Part shown: positions 57,132 through 64,000 of the stretch, piece after piece
How positions within the stretch are numbered: the first letter of the stretch is position 1
Layout of the letters: each line of letters starts with the position of its first letter
Translations under genes and position numbers: made by a program
The notes under the pieces: generated by a model
Databases searched by the model: none
What the model saw: the letters and a program-made list of their open reading frames with translations, nothing else
What the model was told of the DNA's origin: nothing
Assembly: GCA_947494155.1 (NCBI GenBank)
Contig: CANLTW010000001.1
Location: 13,524 to 77,523 of the forward strand
Length of the DNA: 64,000 nt
Reading direction: 5' to 3'
Origin: Chlamydiota bacterium
GTDB lineage: Bacteria; Chlamydiota; Chlamydiia; Chlamydiales; RGXB01

Positions 57132-60110
57132 ATGATTTTCGACCTTTTAAAACGGATATTTGGCACACAGCAGACTCGCATGGTCCGCAAGTACTTCAAA
57201 ATTGTTCAAAAGATCAATAAAGAAGAAGAGAAACTCCAACCTCTTTCCGATGAGGCGATCCGCTCTAAAACAGCCGAGTTTAGAGCCCGTTTAGAAAAGG
57301 GCGAGACGACCGATGATCTTATGGTTGAGGCTTACGCCGTTGTGAAAAACGTCTGCCGCCGTCTTGTAGGGACCGATGTTCATGTATCAGGATACGATCA
57401 AAAATGGGATATGATCCCCTACGATGTGCAGCTTGTGGGGGCGATTGCAATGCACCATCAAACGATTTGCGAAATGCAAACAGGGGAAGGAAAAACGCTC
57501 ACCGCCTCCATGCCTGCTTACTTGCATGGCCTTACGGGGAAGGGTGTGCACGTTGTAACCGTAAACGACTATCTGGCTAAAAGGGACTGTCAATGGATTG
57601 GCGTCATCTTTAGATGGCTTGGATTAGATGTTCGCGCATTGACAAACGAAACCTCTCCTATGGAAAAACAAGATACGTACAACGCCGATATCATTTATGG
57701 TACCGCTTCTGAATTCGGATTTGATTATCTCAGAGACAACTCTATGGCCCAAGATGTAGAGGAGCAGTGCCAGCGCAAACACTATTTTGCCATCATCGAC
57801 GAGGTCGATTCGATCCTTATCGACGAGGCGAGGACCCCACTCATTATCTCTGGTCCAGCTGGAGAGACGCGTCAGATGTACGATGAATTAAAAGAGGATG
57901 TCAACGACCTCGTAGCGCTGCAAAAAAGGTACTGCAACACTTTGGCCGAACAGGCTAGAACCATTTTAGACAAAATGGGTCTTTTCAAAGATTTAGAAGA
58001 GCAACCGAAGCTTACAAAAGAGCAAACGAAGCTGAAAAATGAGGCGATTCGCCTCCTTTGGAAGGTCTCTAAAGGGGTCCCCACCAATAAAATTTTATGC
58101 CAGGCAAAAGAGCTCCCTGACATCCGTGCCGACTTAGAAAATCTGGAAACCTATTTGCATGCTGAAGTCAATAAAGAGGAAAAAATCGAGCTCTTAACCG
58201 ACCTTTACCTGATTATCGATGAGAGATCGAATGATTTCGAGTTGACCGATAAAGGGATTCACGCCTGGAAAGGGGGAGCCGAAGACTTCACCCTTGTTGA
58301 CCTCACAGAAGTTTTTCAAAACATCGATGAGATGCCCCTCTCAGAAGAGGAAAAAATGAAGGAGCGGGTGAAAGTACGTGAAGAGGACTCTTTGAAAAAA
58401 GAGCGCGCTCACAACTTGCGTCAGCTTTTCCGAGCCCATTTGACGATGGAAAAAGATGTGGATTATATCGTTCAGGAAAAAAAGGTCATCATTATTGATG
58501 AAAACACGGGCCGTCCGCAGCCGGGTCGCCGTTTTTCTGATGGATTGCATCAGGCAATAGAAGCAAAAGAGAATCTACCCGTCCAAAGAGAAACACAGAC
58601 CTACGCAACTATCACTTTGCAAAACTACTTCAGGATGTACGAGCGGCTTGCAGGGATGACTGGTACTGCAATGACCGAAGCGACCGAATTTAAACAGATT
58701 TATAACCTCGAAGTTTTGCAGATCCCCACCAATCGGCCTAACCAAAGAGCCGATGCCGATGACGAAATTTACATGACCGAAAGGGAAAAATTCCAGGCGA
58801 TCCTCAAGGACATTCAGGAAAAACATAAAATCGGACGCCCGGTACTTGTGGGTACGGAGACTGTTGAGGCATCAGAGAAATTTTCCAGAATTTTACAACA
58901 AGCCGGTTTGCCACATCACGTGTTAAATGCAAAACAGCCCGAAAAAGAGGCTGAAATTATTGCGATGGCGGGGCAAAAAGGGGCAATCACCGTCTCCACC
59001 AATATGGCAGGACGGGGAACCGATATCAAGCTGACCAAAGAGGTGGAATCTTTTGGTGGGCTCCATGTCGTGGGAACGACCCGTCACCAATCACGCCGTA
59101 TCGATAGACAGCTTCGTGGTAGATCGGGGCGTCAAGGAGATAAAGGGAGCTCTAAGTTTTACGTCTCTTTTGAAGATCCTCTGATGCGTCTGTTCACCTC
59201 CCCGAAATTGAGTCAGTTTCTGGTTCGCTTCCGTCCTCCTGAAGGGGAAGCTATTACCGGAGGGTTGATCAATCGCTCGATCGAAACAGCTCAAAAAAGG
59301 GTCGAACAGAGAAACTATGCGATCCGCAAACACACTCTCGAGTATGACGACGTGATGAATTTGCAACGTCAAGAGGTGTATGCTTTCCGGAACGACATCT
59401 TGAAAAATCCTAACCCTTTTTCTATCGGGAAAAAAGTTCTTGAGGGAGTTTGCTCCATTTTGGTCGAAAAAGAGTTTAAAGAGACTCCACGAATCGATGC
59501 AGACAAGATGCGAAAATTTCAAGAGACCGTTTTTGCTCATATGCCGATTCGTTTTACCGAGGAAGAAATCGAAGCACGATACGAATCCATTCAAGAACTT
59601 GAGGCCCTTTTTGTCAAAAAAGCGGTCGATATGTACGTAAAAAAACTTGACCATGAAGCAAAAATGATTGCCATGATTCAAACAGCAGCCGGTAAACAAG
59701 TGGAGCCCCGCTCGGTTTTACAGGGTGTTTTGCGAAATGTTTTTATACGCAACATCGATCATCTATGGCAACAACATCTTCTTTCAATCGATCATTTGCG
59801 TACCGAGGTTGGTCTATTGACTATTGCGCAAAAAGACCCTCTCTTAGAGTTCAAGCATGAAGCCTTCCGCCTCTTCCTGCTTTTCCGCGAAGACCTTTAT
59901 CAGGAAATTACTCATGCTATTTTTTCCATGCAAATGATGTTGCCGAATTCGGAAAAACTCTTGCAAAGTTTGAAGACCATCTCCATTCGAGAAATGCCCG
60001 GTTTTATTTCGAGCCAAAATTTGGAAACTATTGATGTTTTGATGGAACCGCATGCCTTTAAGCAACCCTCTCACCCGAAAATCGTAGAGCTTGAAACGGC
60101 ACATCCCTGA
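57132..60110 (+). CDS. secA: preprotein translocase ATPase SecA
   Basis: MQTGEGKTL, IIDEVDSILIDEARTPLIISG and TNMAGRGTDI; 992 aa. Confidence 0.98.
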   Translation: MIFDLLKRIFGTQQTRMVRKYFKIVQKINKEEEKLQPLSDEAIRSKTAEFRARLEKGETTDDLMVEAYAVVKNVCRRLVGTDVHVSGYDQKWDMIPYDVQLVGAIAMHHQTICEMQTGEGKTLTASMPAYLHGLTGKGVHVVTVNDYLAKRDCQWIGVIFRWLGLDVRALTNETSPMEKQDTYNADIIYGTASEFGFDYLRDNSMAQDVEEQCQRKHYFAIIDEVDSILIDEARTPLIISGPAGETRQMYDELKEDVNDLVALQKRYCNTLAEQARTILDKMGLFKDLEEQPKLTKEQTKLKNEAIRLLWKVSKGVPTNKILCQAKELPDIRADLENLETYLHAEVNKEEKIELLTDLYLIIDERSNDFELTDKGIHAWKGGAEDFTLVDLTEVFQNIDEMPLSEEEKMKERVKVREEDSLKKERAHNLRQLFRAHLTMEKDVDYIVQEKKVIIIDENTGRPQPGRRFSDGLHQAIEAKENLPVQRETQTYATITLQNYFRMYERLAGMTGTAMTEATEFKQIYNLEVLQIPTNRPNQRADADDEIYMTEREKFQAILKDIQEKHKIGRPVLVGTETVEASEKFSRILQQAGLPHHVLNAKQPEKEAEIIAMAGQKGAITVSTNMAGRGTDIKLTKEVESFGGLHVVGTTRHQSRRIDRQLRGRSGRQGDKGSSKFYVSFEDPLMRLFTSPKLSQFLVRFRPPEGEAITGGLINRSIETAQKRVEQRNYAIRKHTLEYDDVMNLQRQEVYAFRNDILKNPNPFSIGKKVLEGVCSILVEKEFKETPRIDADKMRKFQETVFAHMPIRFTEEEIEARYESIQELEALFVKKAVDMYVKKLDHEAKMIAMIQTAAGKQVEPRSVLQGVLRNVFIRNIDHLWQQHLLSIDHLRTEVGLLTIAQKDPLLEFKHEAFRLFLLFREDLYQEITHAIFSMQMMLPNSEKLLQSLKTISIREMPGFISSQNLETIDVLMEPHAFKQPSHPKIVELETAHP

Positions 60111-60861
60111 ACAAATTTCCCCAATAGATCTCTTTTTATCCTTTTTTAAAAAGAGATCTATTCAATCAGATGCCTTGATCTCTAAGTATTCTTGCCTGTT
60201 CTTCCTTTTTTTACCCTATGCATCGGCTGCAGGATCCAGAATACCGACAGAAATCAATGAGCGAAACATTTTCTGCAAATCACCCGAAATTTTTGTAGTG
60301 GAGAATTTTGCTGACGATACCCTTTGTGAACATCTTGTGCGTGTAGCACTACCTCATCTGAAGCATTCTACAGTTGTGGATTTGACGGGAAAATCGCACG
60401 GAGTGATCGATTCCGGCCGCACAAGTAGCGGTATGTATTTTCCCCCGATGCTGCAGGATAAACACATCGATCATCTTGAAAAAAAAATTGCTCAGCTCAC
60501 CTCCCTTCCACAAAAAAATGGGGAATGGATCCAGGTATTGCGTTATAAACCTTCACAGGAGTACCGCCCCCATTACGATTTCTTCGATCCGCAAACACTT
60601 GGGGGATTAGAGACGCTCAAGCGGGGGGGACAACGCGTAGTGACATGTATTTTGTATCTGAAGGAACCTCTTGTTGGTGGAGAGACTGTTTTTCCCCTTC
60701 TTGGGGTCTCTATTCCCCCAAAAAAAGGATCTTTACTTGTTTTCTACAATTGCGATGAAAAAGGTCAAGTGTTCTACGAAACACTTCACGGGGGCGCGCC
60801 TGTTATAGAGGGGGAAAAATGGATTGCCACCAAGTGGATACGGCAAAAAACTTTTCACTAA
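60091..60861 (+). CDS. prolyl 4-hydroxylase-type 2-oxoglutarate/Fe(II) dioxygenase with hydrophobic (signal-like) N-terminus
   Basis: HxD PHYDFF, distal His TLHGGAPV and 2OG-binding KWIATKWIR. The start is uncertain: TTG at 60091 overlaps secA, while an alternative TTG at 60175 gives the signal-like ISKYSCLFFLFLPYASAAG. Confidence 0.8.
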   Translation: MKRHIPEQISPIDLFLSFFKKRSIQSDALISKYSCLFFLFLPYASAAGSRIPTEINERNIFCKSPEIFVVENFADDTLCEHLVRVALPHLKHSTVVDLTGKSHGVIDSGRTSSGMYFPPMLQDKHIDHLEKKIAQLTSLPQKNGEWIQVLRYKPSQEYRPHYDFFDPQTLGGLETLKRGGQRVVTCILYLKEPLVGGETVFPLLGVSIPPKKGSLLVFYNCDEKGQVFYETLHGGAPVIEGEKWIATKWIRQKTFH

Positions 60862-60934
60862 CACTTTAAAGATATTGAAAAGACAAGCGGGCTCTGGTAT
60901 ACACTTAAACATATTTAAAGAGTTTGTTTGACTT

Positions 60935-62974
60935 ATGGCGTCCAACAGTTTGTCCTCCCGATTTATCGGATTTTTGCCGTTTCTTTTTCTCTTTACCTAT
61001 TGTTTTGCAGATCCGCAGCAGGTTGTGATAGTCAGTTACGCAGAATCGGATGCAAACGGCTACCTTACAACTGCAGGCACCTGTAGCGGTATAGCTCGTG
61101 CAAATTATTTTCCCGGGTACCTTTCTGGCACAACCCCATTAAATCTTTATGGACCACCCATAGCACTTTATGGTGCACGCCAAACCGCAGACAACCCTGG
61201 GCCAAACGTGATTCAATCTCTCATCCCCACCTCAAGATCCTTTAAAGTGCCTCTTCATCTAGGATACGATAGTGGATCTCCGGCAGATTTGGCAGATGAG
61301 ATTTTATCAAACACACTCTACAGCGGAAAAACAGTATTTATCGTATGGGACTATGATGCTATTCCTAGTTTGATCAATGCCTTTGGCTACAGCTCCCCAG
61401 CCGCCCCAAATCCAGTAGCCTATAACAGAACCTACATTTTACAATTTCCCATTAACTCTCCTTTTCCACTCACTCTATGCCAAAGTTTAAACACTTGCGA
61501 TAGCGGATGTACCCCCCCGCCACCTCCACCTCCATCGCCTCCTCCAGCCCCCCCATCGCCACCTGCACCCACACCTTTACCTAATCCCCCTCCTCCTATA
61601 ACCGATTATCTACCCATTACTTTTGTAGATCCCAATTCCGCTAGTTTTGATACTTGGGCGGTAATTACAGGTAAAGTTCCTGTCGCGTCAGGTCTAACTC
61701 CTACACAAGCCTGTTTTGTAAAGATAGACACTAACACTGGCATAGGGACAAGAAGCAACACGACAGCATCAAGCAATTCCTCTGAATATGCTTTCAAAAT
61801 AAAGGACCTTCCCACACTAAACGGAAACCGGTATCTCTACTTACCCTATCTTGACTCCGGAGAAATCTATTTTTCGATTGGCGCCCTTGGTGATGATGAC
61901 CCAAAATGGGCTGTTAAGCTGGATGTCGAATCAACTGGTGGATATGATTTTAAAAAAATTGAACCACTAGATGTAAATAAACAATACTATAACCTTCTAT
62001 TTGATAAGGCTCTTTGTGCTTTTTTACCCACAGGGCAAAACAGCCAATTCTATGTGAGTGCGGTAGATTTTTTTGGTCTGCCTATGTATGTGGAGCTCTT
62101 TCTTGCAAAACCTACATCGAGTAGCGCCAGTCAAAACTGCGGGTTTTGGCAAAGCAGATCCTCTTGTTTTACCGCTTTTGAAAGAATTTTAAAATCTGCA
62201 TATGATCAAACAACCCTAGACAAATGGGGTAATTTGTTTATTAATGCTTCTTCTGGAGGTACGACAGTCAACTTAAGACTTTCTTCCACACAACTAGCCA
62301 TGACTTATTCCTCATCAACTCCCATTTTTCCTAAAACTTACTTATCTGATTCTACTCTTTTCATAGAACCTTTTGATTGGACCGATAAAGTGTGGAAAAC
62401 ATTTTACCAATCTAATGGTTCGAATAAACTTTTTATCGACTGCTCAGGTGTCTCACCCCCTTATAATATCCCCATGTCTGGCTCAACAGCCACTACCCCC
62501 CCTTACAGTTTTGATTTCCAATACACCTCTGGTACAGTCACTTTATCCTCTTCACTTAAACTTCCCACTGACTCCTATGGATTTTTTTCGGGTGATTACA
62601 GTGCGTTTGATGCAATTACAGATGTCCAAAAAGAATTGGTAGATAACCTCACTGCAGCGTTTAGTAGCGGACTTCTTCCGGTTGATGGTGCAAGTCAGAC
62701 GCTCAATAGCGCTTTTTTTCAGGCAAACCAAGCCAGTTTCTACACAAATACTTTTATACAGACGGCATTCCCCTCTCAGTCGGGACCCTTCTATGACCTT
62801 TACGCAAAAGCAATCCATCAGGCTTTTTCTACCAATCAACCCCAAATTTATGCGTTCAAAAACGATGACCTTTTAGGATTTGTCGGCAAAACCACATTTG
62901 ACACGATAGAAGACGCTTATATTACCCTTACATTTGGTAGTCTCGAAGGACAAACTTTAGTCTACCCTCCGTAA
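60935..62974 (+). CDS. secreted multidomain protein: N-domain, polyproline linker, C-terminal possible GH64/thaumatin-like domain
   Basis: Signal-like FIGFLPFLFLFTYCFA; the Pro tract is listed as a separate feature. The C-half pattern GNRYLYLPYLDSGEIYFSIG ... FDKALCAF...FYVSAVDFFGLPMYVEL resembles GH64 beta-1,3-glucanase blocks from memory. Confidence 0.65.
   Translation: MASNSLSSRFIGFLPFLFLFTYCFADPQQVVIVSYAESDANGYLTTAGTCSGIARANYFPGYLSGTTPLNLYGPPIALYGARQTADNPGPNVIQSLIPTSRSFKVPLHLGYDSGSPADLADEILSNTLYSGKTVFIVWDYDAIPSLINAFGYSSPAAPNPVAYNRTYILQFPINSPFPLTLCQSLNTCDSGCTPPPPPPPSPPPAPPSPPAPTPLPNPPPPITDYLPITFVDPNSASFDTWAVITGKVPVASGLTPTQACFVKIDTNTGIGTRSNTTASSNSSEYAFKIKDLPTLNGNRYLYLPYLDSGEIYFSIGALGDDDPKWAVKLDVESTGGYDFKKIEPLDVNKQYYNLLFDKALCAFLPTGQNSQFYVSAVDFFGLPMYVELFLAKPTSSSASQNCGFWQSRSSCFTAFERILKSAYDQTTLDKWGNLFINASSGGTTVNLRLSSTQLAMTYSSSTPIFPKTYLSDSTLFIEPFDWTDKVWKTFYQSNGSNKLFIDCSGVSPPYNIPMSGSTATTPPYSFDFQYTSGTVTLSSSLKLPTDSYGFFSGDYSAFDAITDVQKELVDNLTAAFSSGLLPVDGASQTLNSAFFQANQASFYTNTFIQTAFPSQSGPFYDLYAKAIHQAFSTNQPQIYAFKNDDLLGFVGKTTFDTIEDAYITLTFGSLEGQTLVYPP
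61511..61597 (+). other. polyproline / extensin-like tract within the 60935-62974 CDS
   Basis: TPPPPPPPSPPPAPPSPPAPTPLPNPPPP has 21 Pro in 29 residues, encoded by mixed CCC/CCG/CCA/CCT codons. Confidence 0.95.
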
Positions 62975-63150: not shown

Positions 63151-64000
63151 ATGAAAAAAAATCCGGTCCCAGGGATTTACCTTTTTATTTTTTCTTTTTT
63201 TCCCATTTTATGTGCCGAAAATAGTCTTACAAATATTGAACTTGAGGGAGAATTTCTCTACTGGACAGCATACCAAAACGATTTTGGTTGTGCCACCCAC
63301 TCTACACCGGTTTTTACCACAACGGATTTTCTTTTAAATCGGATTGACAAACCCACCTATTCCTGGCGGCCAGGCTATAGATTAAGCGGATATTATGATG
63401 TTTTTTTTGGGGAAGTGGGGGCAAGATTTACCTCCTACCAAGGGGCGTTGAACGAGAGGTATGGAACCTCAGCTTTAGAGGGGTTTTACCCCCTTTTCAC
63501 ACTATGGAACGATAAATTACCAAGCGATTACACACGCTTTTCCTCCATAAAAGGGGCAATCGATCTTTGGAGTATCGATGCATATGCCCTATTCAATCTT
63601 TTAAGTGAGGATATCCTTATATATCCGAAAATTGGAGTAAGAAATTTGTGGCTTAACCAAAGCTACGATGTTACGTATGACGGGGGGACTTTTGCAGCAG
63701 GCACCGATATCCTCTTTCGCTCATCCAAGTTTTATGGTGTAGGACCTCAAGCGGGATTAACCGGTTTCTTGCAGCTTTTCGGAAATTTCTTTTTGACAGG
63801 GGAAGCTTTGGGAACATGGTATGCCGGTACCTTCAAAGATTTTCAATCCGAAACTTTTTTAGATCGAACGCTTACTGATCAAAAACTTACCCAAACCTAC
63901 AGCCGGTTTAGCCTAGACTTGCAAGGGGGCCTTGAATGGGCGGGGAGTTTTTTTGATGACCGTTTTTTAGTGGGTATAACGGTAGGGGGGGACTGGATTT
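63151..64000 (+). CDS. MOMP-like outer-membrane beta-barrel protein, paralog 4; 3' end lies outside the window
   Basis: Hand translation from the ATG at 63151 stays open to the window end. Signal-like IYLFIFSFFPILCA. LEGEFLYW and FYGVGPQAGLTGF match motifs of the 27992-31319 porins. Confidence 0.65.
   Translation, partial: MKKNPVPGIYLFIFSFFPILCAENSLTNIELEGEFLYWTAYQNDFGCATHSTPVFTTTDFLLNRIDKPTYSWRPGYRLSGYYDVFFGEVGARFTSYQGALNERYGTSALEGFYPLFTLWNDKLPSDYTRFSSIKGAIDLWSIDAYALFNLLSEDILIYPKIGVRNLWLNQSYDVTYDGGTFAAGTDILFRSSKFYGVGPQAGLTGFLQLFGNFFLTGEALGTWYAGTFKDFQSETFLDRTLTDQKLTQTYSRFSLDLQGGLEWAGSFFDDRFLVGITVGGDWI

Follow-up and report, generated by a model that had tools for sequence, protein, structure and literature searches.

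A prolyl 4-hydroxylase gene next to a gene for a GH64-like protein with a polyproline linker in one chlamydial clade

Introduction

Does a bacterial prolyl 4-hydroxylase (P4H) act on a proline-rich protein that is encoded directly downstream of it? This question is raised by a locus in contig CANLTW010000001.1 of a Chlamydiota bacterium (assembly GCA_947494155.1), from which a stretch of 64,000 nt, called the window here, was analysed; all coordinates are window positions. The locus consists of a P4H open reading frame (ORF) at 60091–60861 and an ORF at 60935–62974, which encodes a 679-aa protein with a GH64-like domain and a dense polyproline tract. A first-pass annotation of the DNA, which had placed both ORFs correctly on the same strand with 73 nt between them, proposed that they form an extensin-like enzyme-substrate system. 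The results described below favour a plainer explanation, which we hold with moderate confidence: two ordinary parts lie side by side in one chlamydial clade, and the tract is hydroxylated opportunistically at most, not as the target of a dedicated module.

The natural substrates of bacterial collagen-type P4Hs are, to our knowledge, still unsettled, and the locus offers one concrete candidate, a 29-residue peptide encoded beside the enzyme. P4H genes of chlamydiae have been recorded before, and both the P4H and the GH64-like domain are members of known families; a module of the two, if real, would be new. P4H has been listed among the genes common to Chlamydiae and Plantae (PMC2376095). A literature search found no paper on the substrates of the chlamydial P4H and none on GH64 in chlamydiae.

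Results

The upstream gene has the features of a collagen/algal-type P4H

The upstream ORF matches the Pfam family 2OG-FeII_Oxy_3 (PF13640) with an E-value of 5.6e-17 over residues 147–251 of its 256 aa. It contains the motifs PHYDFF, TLHGGAPV and KWIATKWIR, and its earlier identification as a P4H from the context of the metal-binding triad is borne out by the Pfam match, by all of the catalytic residues and by P4H structures in the PDB. The longest form of the ORF, starting from TTG 60091, shares 20 nt with the end of secA. The P4H homologues are called at 227–229 aa, and their alignment with the window protein begins only at the in-frame TTG 60175, which is the likely start and gives a protein of 228 aa (60175–60861, forward strand). 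The N-terminus of this form, MISKYSCLFFLFLPYASA followed by AGS, resembles a signal peptide when judged by eye, so that the hydrophobic beginning reported in the first pass holds from TTG 60175 rather than from the start listed there. The predicted Sec signal peptide, (M)ISKYSCLFFLFLPYASA with cleavage before AGS, spans 60175–60228. Comparable hydrophobic N-termini are present in all homologues from the Planctomycetes-Verrucomicrobia-Chlamydiae (PVC) group in an alignment of 19 P4H homologues (alignment A2), and export of the window P4H by the Sec pathway is expected. The start differs among gene callers, identical or near-identical proteins being recorded at 256, 228 and 187 aa; the 228-aa form from TTG 60175 is the only one with both a signal peptide and a fit to the homologues.

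The catalytic codons were located at 60571–60573 (His), 60577–60579 (Asp), 60787–60789 (the distal His) and 60817–60819 (the Lys that binds 2-oxoglutarate, 2OG). The Fe(II)-binding His-x-Asp in PHYDF (60571–60579, codons checked) and the distal His make up the triad H133, D135 and H205 in the numbering of the 228-aa form. The triad is invariant in A2 and corresponds to His143, Asp145 and His227 of the algal enzyme Cr-P4H-1, whose numbering was derived from the printed alignment as the chain index plus 29, which reproduces His143. The 2OG-binding Tyr (in VLRYKP), Thr (in QRVVTC) and Lys (in GEKW) align to Tyr134, the conserved Thr and Lys237 of Cr-P4H-1. Among the six residues of Cr-P4H-1 that contact the peptide or are important for activity, five are identical in the window P4H (Arg93, Glu127, Tyr140, Arg161 and Trp243), and the sixth, Trp99, has given way to another aromatic residue, Tyr. 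The roles of the 2OG ligands and peptide contacts are as given in PMC9676403 and PMC7948501. All the mapped Fe, 2OG and peptide residues are invariant across the 19 homologues. Ser95, a putative further peptide contact of Cr-P4H-1, is also kept, and His245 is replaced by Arg.

When the window P4H was compared with the PDB, the best match was Cr-P4H-1 (2jig and 3gze, E 1.6e-36), followed by the Bacillus anthracis enzyme (3itq and 5hv0, E 8e-32), the catalytic domain of human C-P4H-II (7zsc, E 8.7e-24) and the P4H of the virus PBCV-1 (5c5t, E 1.7e-21). All the strong structure matches are peptidyl P4Hs, for which reason the alternative of a free-proline hydroxylase was set aside, and five P4H structures were matched at full length. 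Every feature that can be tested on the sequence marks the window protein as an intact peptidyl-prolyl 4-hydroxylase of the collagen/algal type.

The comparison with characterised enzymes shows both likenesses and differences. Like Cr-P4H-1 (2JIG, 3GZE), the window P4H is a single domain of ~200 residues with an HxD...H triad, the 2OG-binding Tyr, Thr and Lys, the peptide-contact Arg, Glu, Tyr, Arg and Trp, both substrate-binding loops and an N-terminal targeting sequence. Unlike Cr-P4H-1, it is bacterial and predicted to be exported by Sec rather than directed to the endoplasmic reticulum or Golgi, it has no counterpart of the extended betaIV-betaV loop and its Cys195-Cys230 disulfide, and it carries the replacements at Trp99 and His245. 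The B. anthracis P4H (3ITQ, 5HV0) is also bacterial, belongs to the same family, has a similar size and is the second-best PDB match over nearly its full length. Its physiological substrate is also unsettled, and it has been studied with collagen-like Gly-Pro-Pro peptides. The window locus differs in that its enzyme has a clear signal-like N-terminus and in that it holds no Gly-X-Y repeats, by which a collagen-like substrate is ruled out here. PBCV-1 is an example of a non-eukaryotic genome that encodes a small P4H together with presumed Pro-rich targets, which are (PAPK)n-type repeats; its P4H (5C5T) is of the same family, but is more distant in sequence, and its pairing with the targets is not based on gene adjacency.

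A contig binned as 'Acidobacteriota' (L009, CAVWEK010000002.1) also encodes a P4H that shares 49% identity with the chlamydial enzyme and has a similar signal peptide; mis-binning or lateral transfer may explain this.

The downstream protein carries a GH64-like domain

The downstream ORF had been described as a simple polyproline protein of the extensin kind. Alignment of its product with the 8 close and distant homologues that were found (alignment A1) gives a different architecture, consisting of a signal peptide, an N-terminal domain (N-domain) of ~167 residues, the Pro-rich tract and a large C-terminal domain. The predicted signal peptide, MASNSLSSRFIGFLPFLFLFTYCFA with cleavage before DP, spans 60935–61009 and has equivalent hydrophobic N-termini in the orthologues; the earlier reading of this ORF as signal-bearing agrees with this, and the protein would be exported. 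The N-domain occupies 61010–61510 and has a Cys-rich end, LCQSLNTCDSGC. It is followed by the tract (61511–61597) and by a GH64-fold domain of 458 aa (61598–62971).

The Pfam family Glyco_hydro_64 was matched by 5 of 8 relatives (best E 2e-26), and the window protein alone gave no Pfam GH64 match. An exhaustive search with the C-terminal domain returned 103 relatives, and a family profile of 45 sequences matched GH64 structures in the PDB with E-values of 1.9e-34 to 5e-18. An AlphaFold2 model of residues 222–679, made with the 45-sequence alignment, reached a predicted local distance difference test score (pLDDT) of 93.2 and a predicted template modelling score (pTM) of 0.92. It was used instead of a full-length model on the 8-sequence alignment, which was set aside (pLDDT 39). 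With the model of the C-terminal domain, the top six Foldseek matches in the PDB were all GH64 beta-1,3-glucanases (E 7.6e-16 to 1.6e-09), with 3gd0 leading (E 7.6e-16, target template modelling score 0.78) and 7vtl, 5h4e and 5h9x also matched, and thaumatin-like proteins came next. A near-identical protein from the same 90%-identity cluster is named 'beta-1,3-glucanase family protein [Chlamydiia bacterium]' by NCBI.

GH64 enzymes use Glu154 as the catalytic acid and Asp170 as the base in LPHase numbering (PMC4758615). The motif of the present family, E-x15-D with Trp at +9 and Thr at +13, fits this catalytic pattern. In the general-acid column of the 45 sequences, Glu is found in 42, Leu in the window protein (62012–62014) and its nearest relative (P0002), and Lys in another clade member (P0006). 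The RGYU01 genome has Lys at this position, and the other clade members keep Glu (the positions were compared also in L094 and L093). The Asp that serves as catalytic base is kept in the window protein (SAVDFF, 62066–62068). The spacing from Glu to Asp is 18 residues, not 16, and in this clade the equivalent of the sugar-binding Trp163 is absent. In the sublineage with Leu, a C-terminal domain of ~110 aa that other clade members keep has been lost as well.

With Leu in place of the catalytic Glu, the window domain is probably not an active glucanase; since it has the GH64 fold and lacks this Glu, it is called GH64-like here and not a GH64 glucanase. It shares with the GH64 beta-1,3-glucanases the two-domain fold in the C-terminal 458 residues and the catalytic Asp equivalent, and differs from them in the Leu for Glu154, the extra N-domain and the polyproline linker. 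The protein may be glucan-binding. The loss of Glu together with that of the ~110-aa domain points either to a change of role, with a glucanase becoming a binding protein, or to selection having been relaxed.

The N-domain had no Pfam match even at E 10 and no PDB sequence match. It is conserved in the clade orthologues and in one distant metagenome member (L106, 1900–2400, E 2.8e-40), and it is restricted to these. The motifs VVIVSYAES and TVFIVWDY recall a histidine phosphatase (SYAES versus RHGE, IVWDF versus IVAHG), and the N-domain was considered as a degenerate domain of this kind; hhalign against the PGAM protein of the window itself lent this no support, with a probability of 0.5%, which is not significant.

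The polyproline tract is a conserved, probable linker between two domains

The tract, TPPPPPPPSPPPAPPSPPAPTPLPNPPPP, contains 21 Pro in 29 residues (72% Pro), and its Pro codons are CCT (ten), CCA (six), CCC (four) and CCG (one), in agreement with the earlier count, by which all four CCN codons are used. The orthologue tracts keep the Pro residues and the length, and their Pro codons differ synonymously, which indicates that the tract is selected at the protein level, as the codon usage had led the first-pass annotation to propose; a slippage artefact or a spurious ORF is ruled out on the same ground. The downstream ORF is the only Pro-rich one among the 61 of the window, the runner-up having 9 Pro in 30 residues. 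For experiments, the tract peptide to be analysed by liquid chromatography-tandem mass spectrometry is CTPPPPPPPSPPPAPPSPPAPTPLPNPPPPITDY, and the peptide for a P4H assay is PPPSPPPAPPSPPAP.

Throughout the clade, the tract is flanked by the Cys-rich end of the N-domain on one side and by the first strand of the GH64 fold on the other (...CDSGC-[Pro tract]-ITDYLPITFV), and it would presumably form a polyproline II (PPII) helix as an inter-domain linker. It is a single 29-residue tract within a globular, multi-domain protein of 679 aa and has two SPP(P) motifs. The SPPP and APP motifs to which the earlier proposal appealed are present in the window tract but are not conserved in the clade, one orthologue (L095) having 25 Pro in 30 residues and no Ser. 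Exactly at the tract, assembly GCA_010031885.1 is broken, so that one of its contigs ends in the N-domain (L008) and another begins just after the tract (L093); polyproline tracts may fragment short-read assemblies and hide genes of this kind.

Pro-rich sequence at this position is wider than the clade. At least 10 Pro in 30 residues were found in 19 of 100 distant homologues of the C-terminal domain, mostly just ahead of this strand (PPSPPSPPVPPPTPPAPPFITDYLP is one of them). A lead-in of the form GLT(S/N)PC...PPPNPPxPPF(K/M)xG(L/F)LPIV(L/I)VNNS recurs before the GH64-like domain in many distant metagenome homologues (L114, L115, L117, L118, L122, L123 and L125). In the distant member L106, the N-domain, a short Pro linker and a GH64 domain follow each other, and the upstream gene is lepA, not a P4H gene. 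The Pro-rich lead-in of the distant homologues indicates that this feature predates both the clade and the adjacency to P4H.

Pro/Thr-rich inter-domain linkers, such as the 'PT boxes' of Cellulomonas fimi, are known from secreted bacterial glycoside hydrolases. As in these linkers, a short, extended, Pro-rich spacer here joins an accessory domain to a domain of glycoside hydrolase fold in a protein predicted to be exported. In contrast to them, the window tract is far denser in Pro, has a conserved length in the orthologues and is encoded next to a P4H gene. We know of no bacterial linker that is hydroxylated.

The gene pair is found in one syntenic clade

The distribution of the pair was analysed locus by locus. 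A P4H gene followed by the GH64-like gene was found in the window, in L001–L004, in the P0004 contig, in L007/L096, L094 and L095, and in the RGYU01 genome (L008/L093). The two genes thus stay adjacent in related Chlamydiota, which was one of the checks suggested with the original proposal. In all the paired loci, the whole block nth-psd-secA-P4H-GH64like-OMP-...-lpdA-lipA is syntenic. Because the entire block is syntenic and inside one clade only, the adjacency counts as a single evolutionary event.

On the side of the GH64-like gene, 34 metagenome loci were inspected, of which three (L094–L096) belong to the clade and 31 lie outside it. No P4H was found in the 31 outside loci, ~12 of which have Pro-rich tracts, though many of their flanks are short. 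The flanks of L005, of L006, of L087 (10 kb on each side), of L090/L091 and of L092 also contained no P4H. The absence of P4H outside the clade (0 of ~36 loci) is firm for only the ~10 loci with a flank of at least 4 kb.

On the side of the P4H, a genome scan returned 593 relatives, and the best 80 loci were inspected. Among these 80, the pairing was seen only in L007 and L008, which are both members of the clade and syntenic. The neighbours in the other P4H loci of Chlamydiota and Verrucomicrobiota are unrelated, and none is Pro-rich. When the immediate neighbours in 47 loci were scored with a threshold of at least 12 Pro in 30 residues, 1 of 94 passed, and 46 of the 47 loci had no Pro-rich neighbour. 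Members of the P4H family occur widely across Chlamydiota, Verrucomicrobiota and Proteobacteria and have unrelated genes beside them there, which indicates that the family has a function independent of the GH64-like gene. Neither from the P4H side nor from the GH64-like side did the adjacency recur in independent, non-syntenic lineages. The lone other Pro-rich neighbour is a convergent lipoprotein gene (L063, 6723–8945, reverse strand, lipobox LVAC/G) in a metagenome-assembled genome of Comamonadaceae, and its product has 18 Pro in 30 residues in the N-terminal linker (APPAPPAPPAPPPLPPPP).

The suggestion of an extensin-like system did not stand. Plant and algal P4Hs act on hydroxyproline-rich glycoproteins, and the present candidate target resembles these in being Pro-rich with Ser-Pro and Ala-Pro. 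Unlike the extensin systems, it has one 29-residue tract and no tandem Ser-Pro(3-5) repeats, and no genes for hydroxyproline O-glycosylation were seen nearby, no glycosyltransferase being present in the ~8 kb that flank the pair on each side of these syntenic loci.

A promoter-like element precedes the downstream gene

The 73-nt spacer between the two genes is unusually well conserved (86%). It contains a promoter-like element at 60875–60903 on the forward strand (TTGAAA, 17 nt, TATACA, with TG at -15/-14), which has an extended -10 (TATACA or TATAAA in the clade) and lies ~30 nt 5' of the start codon of the GH64-like gene. The distance from the element to the ATG is fixed in the five members compared (the window, L094, L096, L008 and L095). 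Across the clade the spacer varies from 73 to ~320 nt, reaching 185–320 nt in other members, and the position of the element is unaffected, also where 250–320 nt separate the genes. From its resemblance to the consensus and its conservation, the element is read as the probable promoter of the downstream gene itself. With such an element conserved before the downstream gene, co-transcription with the P4H gene is possible and not required.

Discussion

The preferred explanation is that two ordinary parts stand next to each other in this clade, and it builds on the protein identities, the fold, the status of the catalytic residues, the distribution of the adjacency and the conservation of the promoter-like element. 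The upstream gene encodes a P4H of monomeric type and of the collagen/algal class, which would be exported by its Sec signal peptide. This enzyme belongs to a widespread family of predicted exported proteins and would have its ancestral substrate or substrates elsewhere. The downstream gene, which has its own conserved promoter-like element, encodes a predicted secreted protein made of the clade-restricted N-domain, a polyproline spacer of ~30 residues and the GH64-fold domain. The tract would be a rigid inter-domain linker that was inherited from the GH64-like family and is kept as a spacer by purifying selection. Binding of beta-1,3-glucan, or another role, is likelier than hydrolysis for a GH64 domain that has neither the general-acid Glu nor the ~110-aa C-terminal domain. 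Poly-L-proline is accepted as a peptide by Cr-P4H-1, the closest characterised enzyme. As both proteins are predicted to be exported and this enzyme accepts Pro-rich peptides, the linker may be hydroxylated opportunistically. Cr-P4H-1 was crystallised with (Ser-Pro)5 (the 3GZE complex), in which Tyr140 touches the proline to be hydroxylated (PMC9676403).

Several observations weigh against the preferred explanation. The two genes lie on the same strand 73 nt apart, and the spacer contains no terminator-like site or hairpin. The pair is kept in ~7 lineages, in every clade member examined, at identities down to ~51–56% for the downstream protein and 58% for the P4H. Pro-rich tracts are rare outside the GH64-like family (among 465 other ORFs taken from related loci of low GC, none reaches 12 Pro in 30 residues), those in the clade with the P4H pairing rank with the longest and purest of the family at 19–25 Pro in 30 residues, and the chance of a P4H gene landing beside such a tract is roughly 1% or lower. 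All this can be read as a dedicated enzyme-substrate module, in which an exported P4H was recruited beside the GH64-like gene and hydroxylates the linker after Sec export, stabilising the PPII spacer or shielding it from host proteases, much as the PBCV-1 P4H acts on viral Pro-rich proteins or plant P4Hs on extensins. The module is also consistent with the nearest solved homologue being the one crystallised with (Ser-Pro)5, with peptide-contact residues that are intact save for Trp99, with signal-like N-termini on both proteins and with purifying selection on the tract. However, the adjacency has a single origin inside a wholly syntenic block, P4H homologues elsewhere have a Pro-rich neighbour in one case out of 94, and GH64-like homologues with Pro tracts elsewhere have no P4H in their flanks. 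A promoter-like element of its own precedes the downstream gene, and other clade members have longer spacers; the Ser/Ala-Pro motifs of the tract vary, no gene resembling a hydroxyproline glycosyltransferase lies in the flanks, and the window itself was picked post hoc for looking interesting. The enzyme-substrate idea is thus reasonable and the linker a plausible P4H target, but the comparative support is thin, and a dedicated module is judged somewhat unlikely.

At the other extreme, the P4H would never meet the linker and would act on other substrates common to its homologues, such as other envelope proteins or, if it is secreted, proteins of the host, the adjacency being a neutral accident fixed by synteny. 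Signal-bearing homologues with 41–50% identity do occur in many PVC genomes in unrelated contexts with no GH64-like gene nearby, and P4H is among the genes common to Chlamydiae and Plantae. Against this, Sec export to the same compartment would be expected to bring a P4H that accepts polyproline into touch with an exposed PPII tract of 29 residues, chance adjacency to so rare a class of sequence is improbable, and no alternative P4H substrate was identified in the 64-kb window. A complete lack of contact is the least probable of the possibilities considered, and it is quite unlikely. In a more far-reaching picture, a Sec-exported P4H of the Chlamydomonas type and its neighbour would give a freshwater clade of chlamydiae a bacterial equivalent of the pairs of P4H and Pro-rich target known from algae or viruses. 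The polyproline spacer would become polyhydroxyproline, stiffening or protease-proofing a stalk that presents a silenced glucan-binding domain to the beta-1,3-glucan of an algal or protist host; this picture is speculative and unlikely as a whole.

The preferred explanation, with opportunistic hydroxylation at most, and the module differ in their consequences. If the linker is hydroxylated as a true target, a physiological substrate would be defined for the first time for a bacterial P4H of the collagen type, and a linker that bears hydroxyproline would be new among the secreted proteins of bacteria. It would also place protein hydroxyproline chemistry in an obligate intracellular bacterium, in its envelope or its secretome, and tie in with the older observation of P4H genes common to chlamydiae and plants or algae (PMC2376095). 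If it is not hydroxylated, the Pro-rich linker is an ordinary one, and the enzyme encoded next to it is unrelated. Apart from this, a secreted protein that has a GH64 fold but no longer the catalytic acid gives a hint of glucan binding by a chlamydia, which may bear on the cell wall or storage glucan of the host.

Neighbouring genes

The secA gene upstream of the P4H gene (57132–60110, forward strand, 992 aa) is part of the syntenic block of the clade; it was identified from the window ORF, from SecA Pfam domains on orthologous genes and from local phmmer matches in L007 and L008. Downstream of the GH64-like gene lies a gene for a Legionella_OMP-like outer-membrane protein (63151–64000, forward strand), which runs off the end of the window and was identified from its translation and from PF05150 matches on orthologous genes. 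Outer-membrane-protein genes (Legionella_OMP or OMP_b-brl) adjoin GH64-like genes in three contexts, namely here, in L090 (10085–11143) and in L092 (7035–7859).

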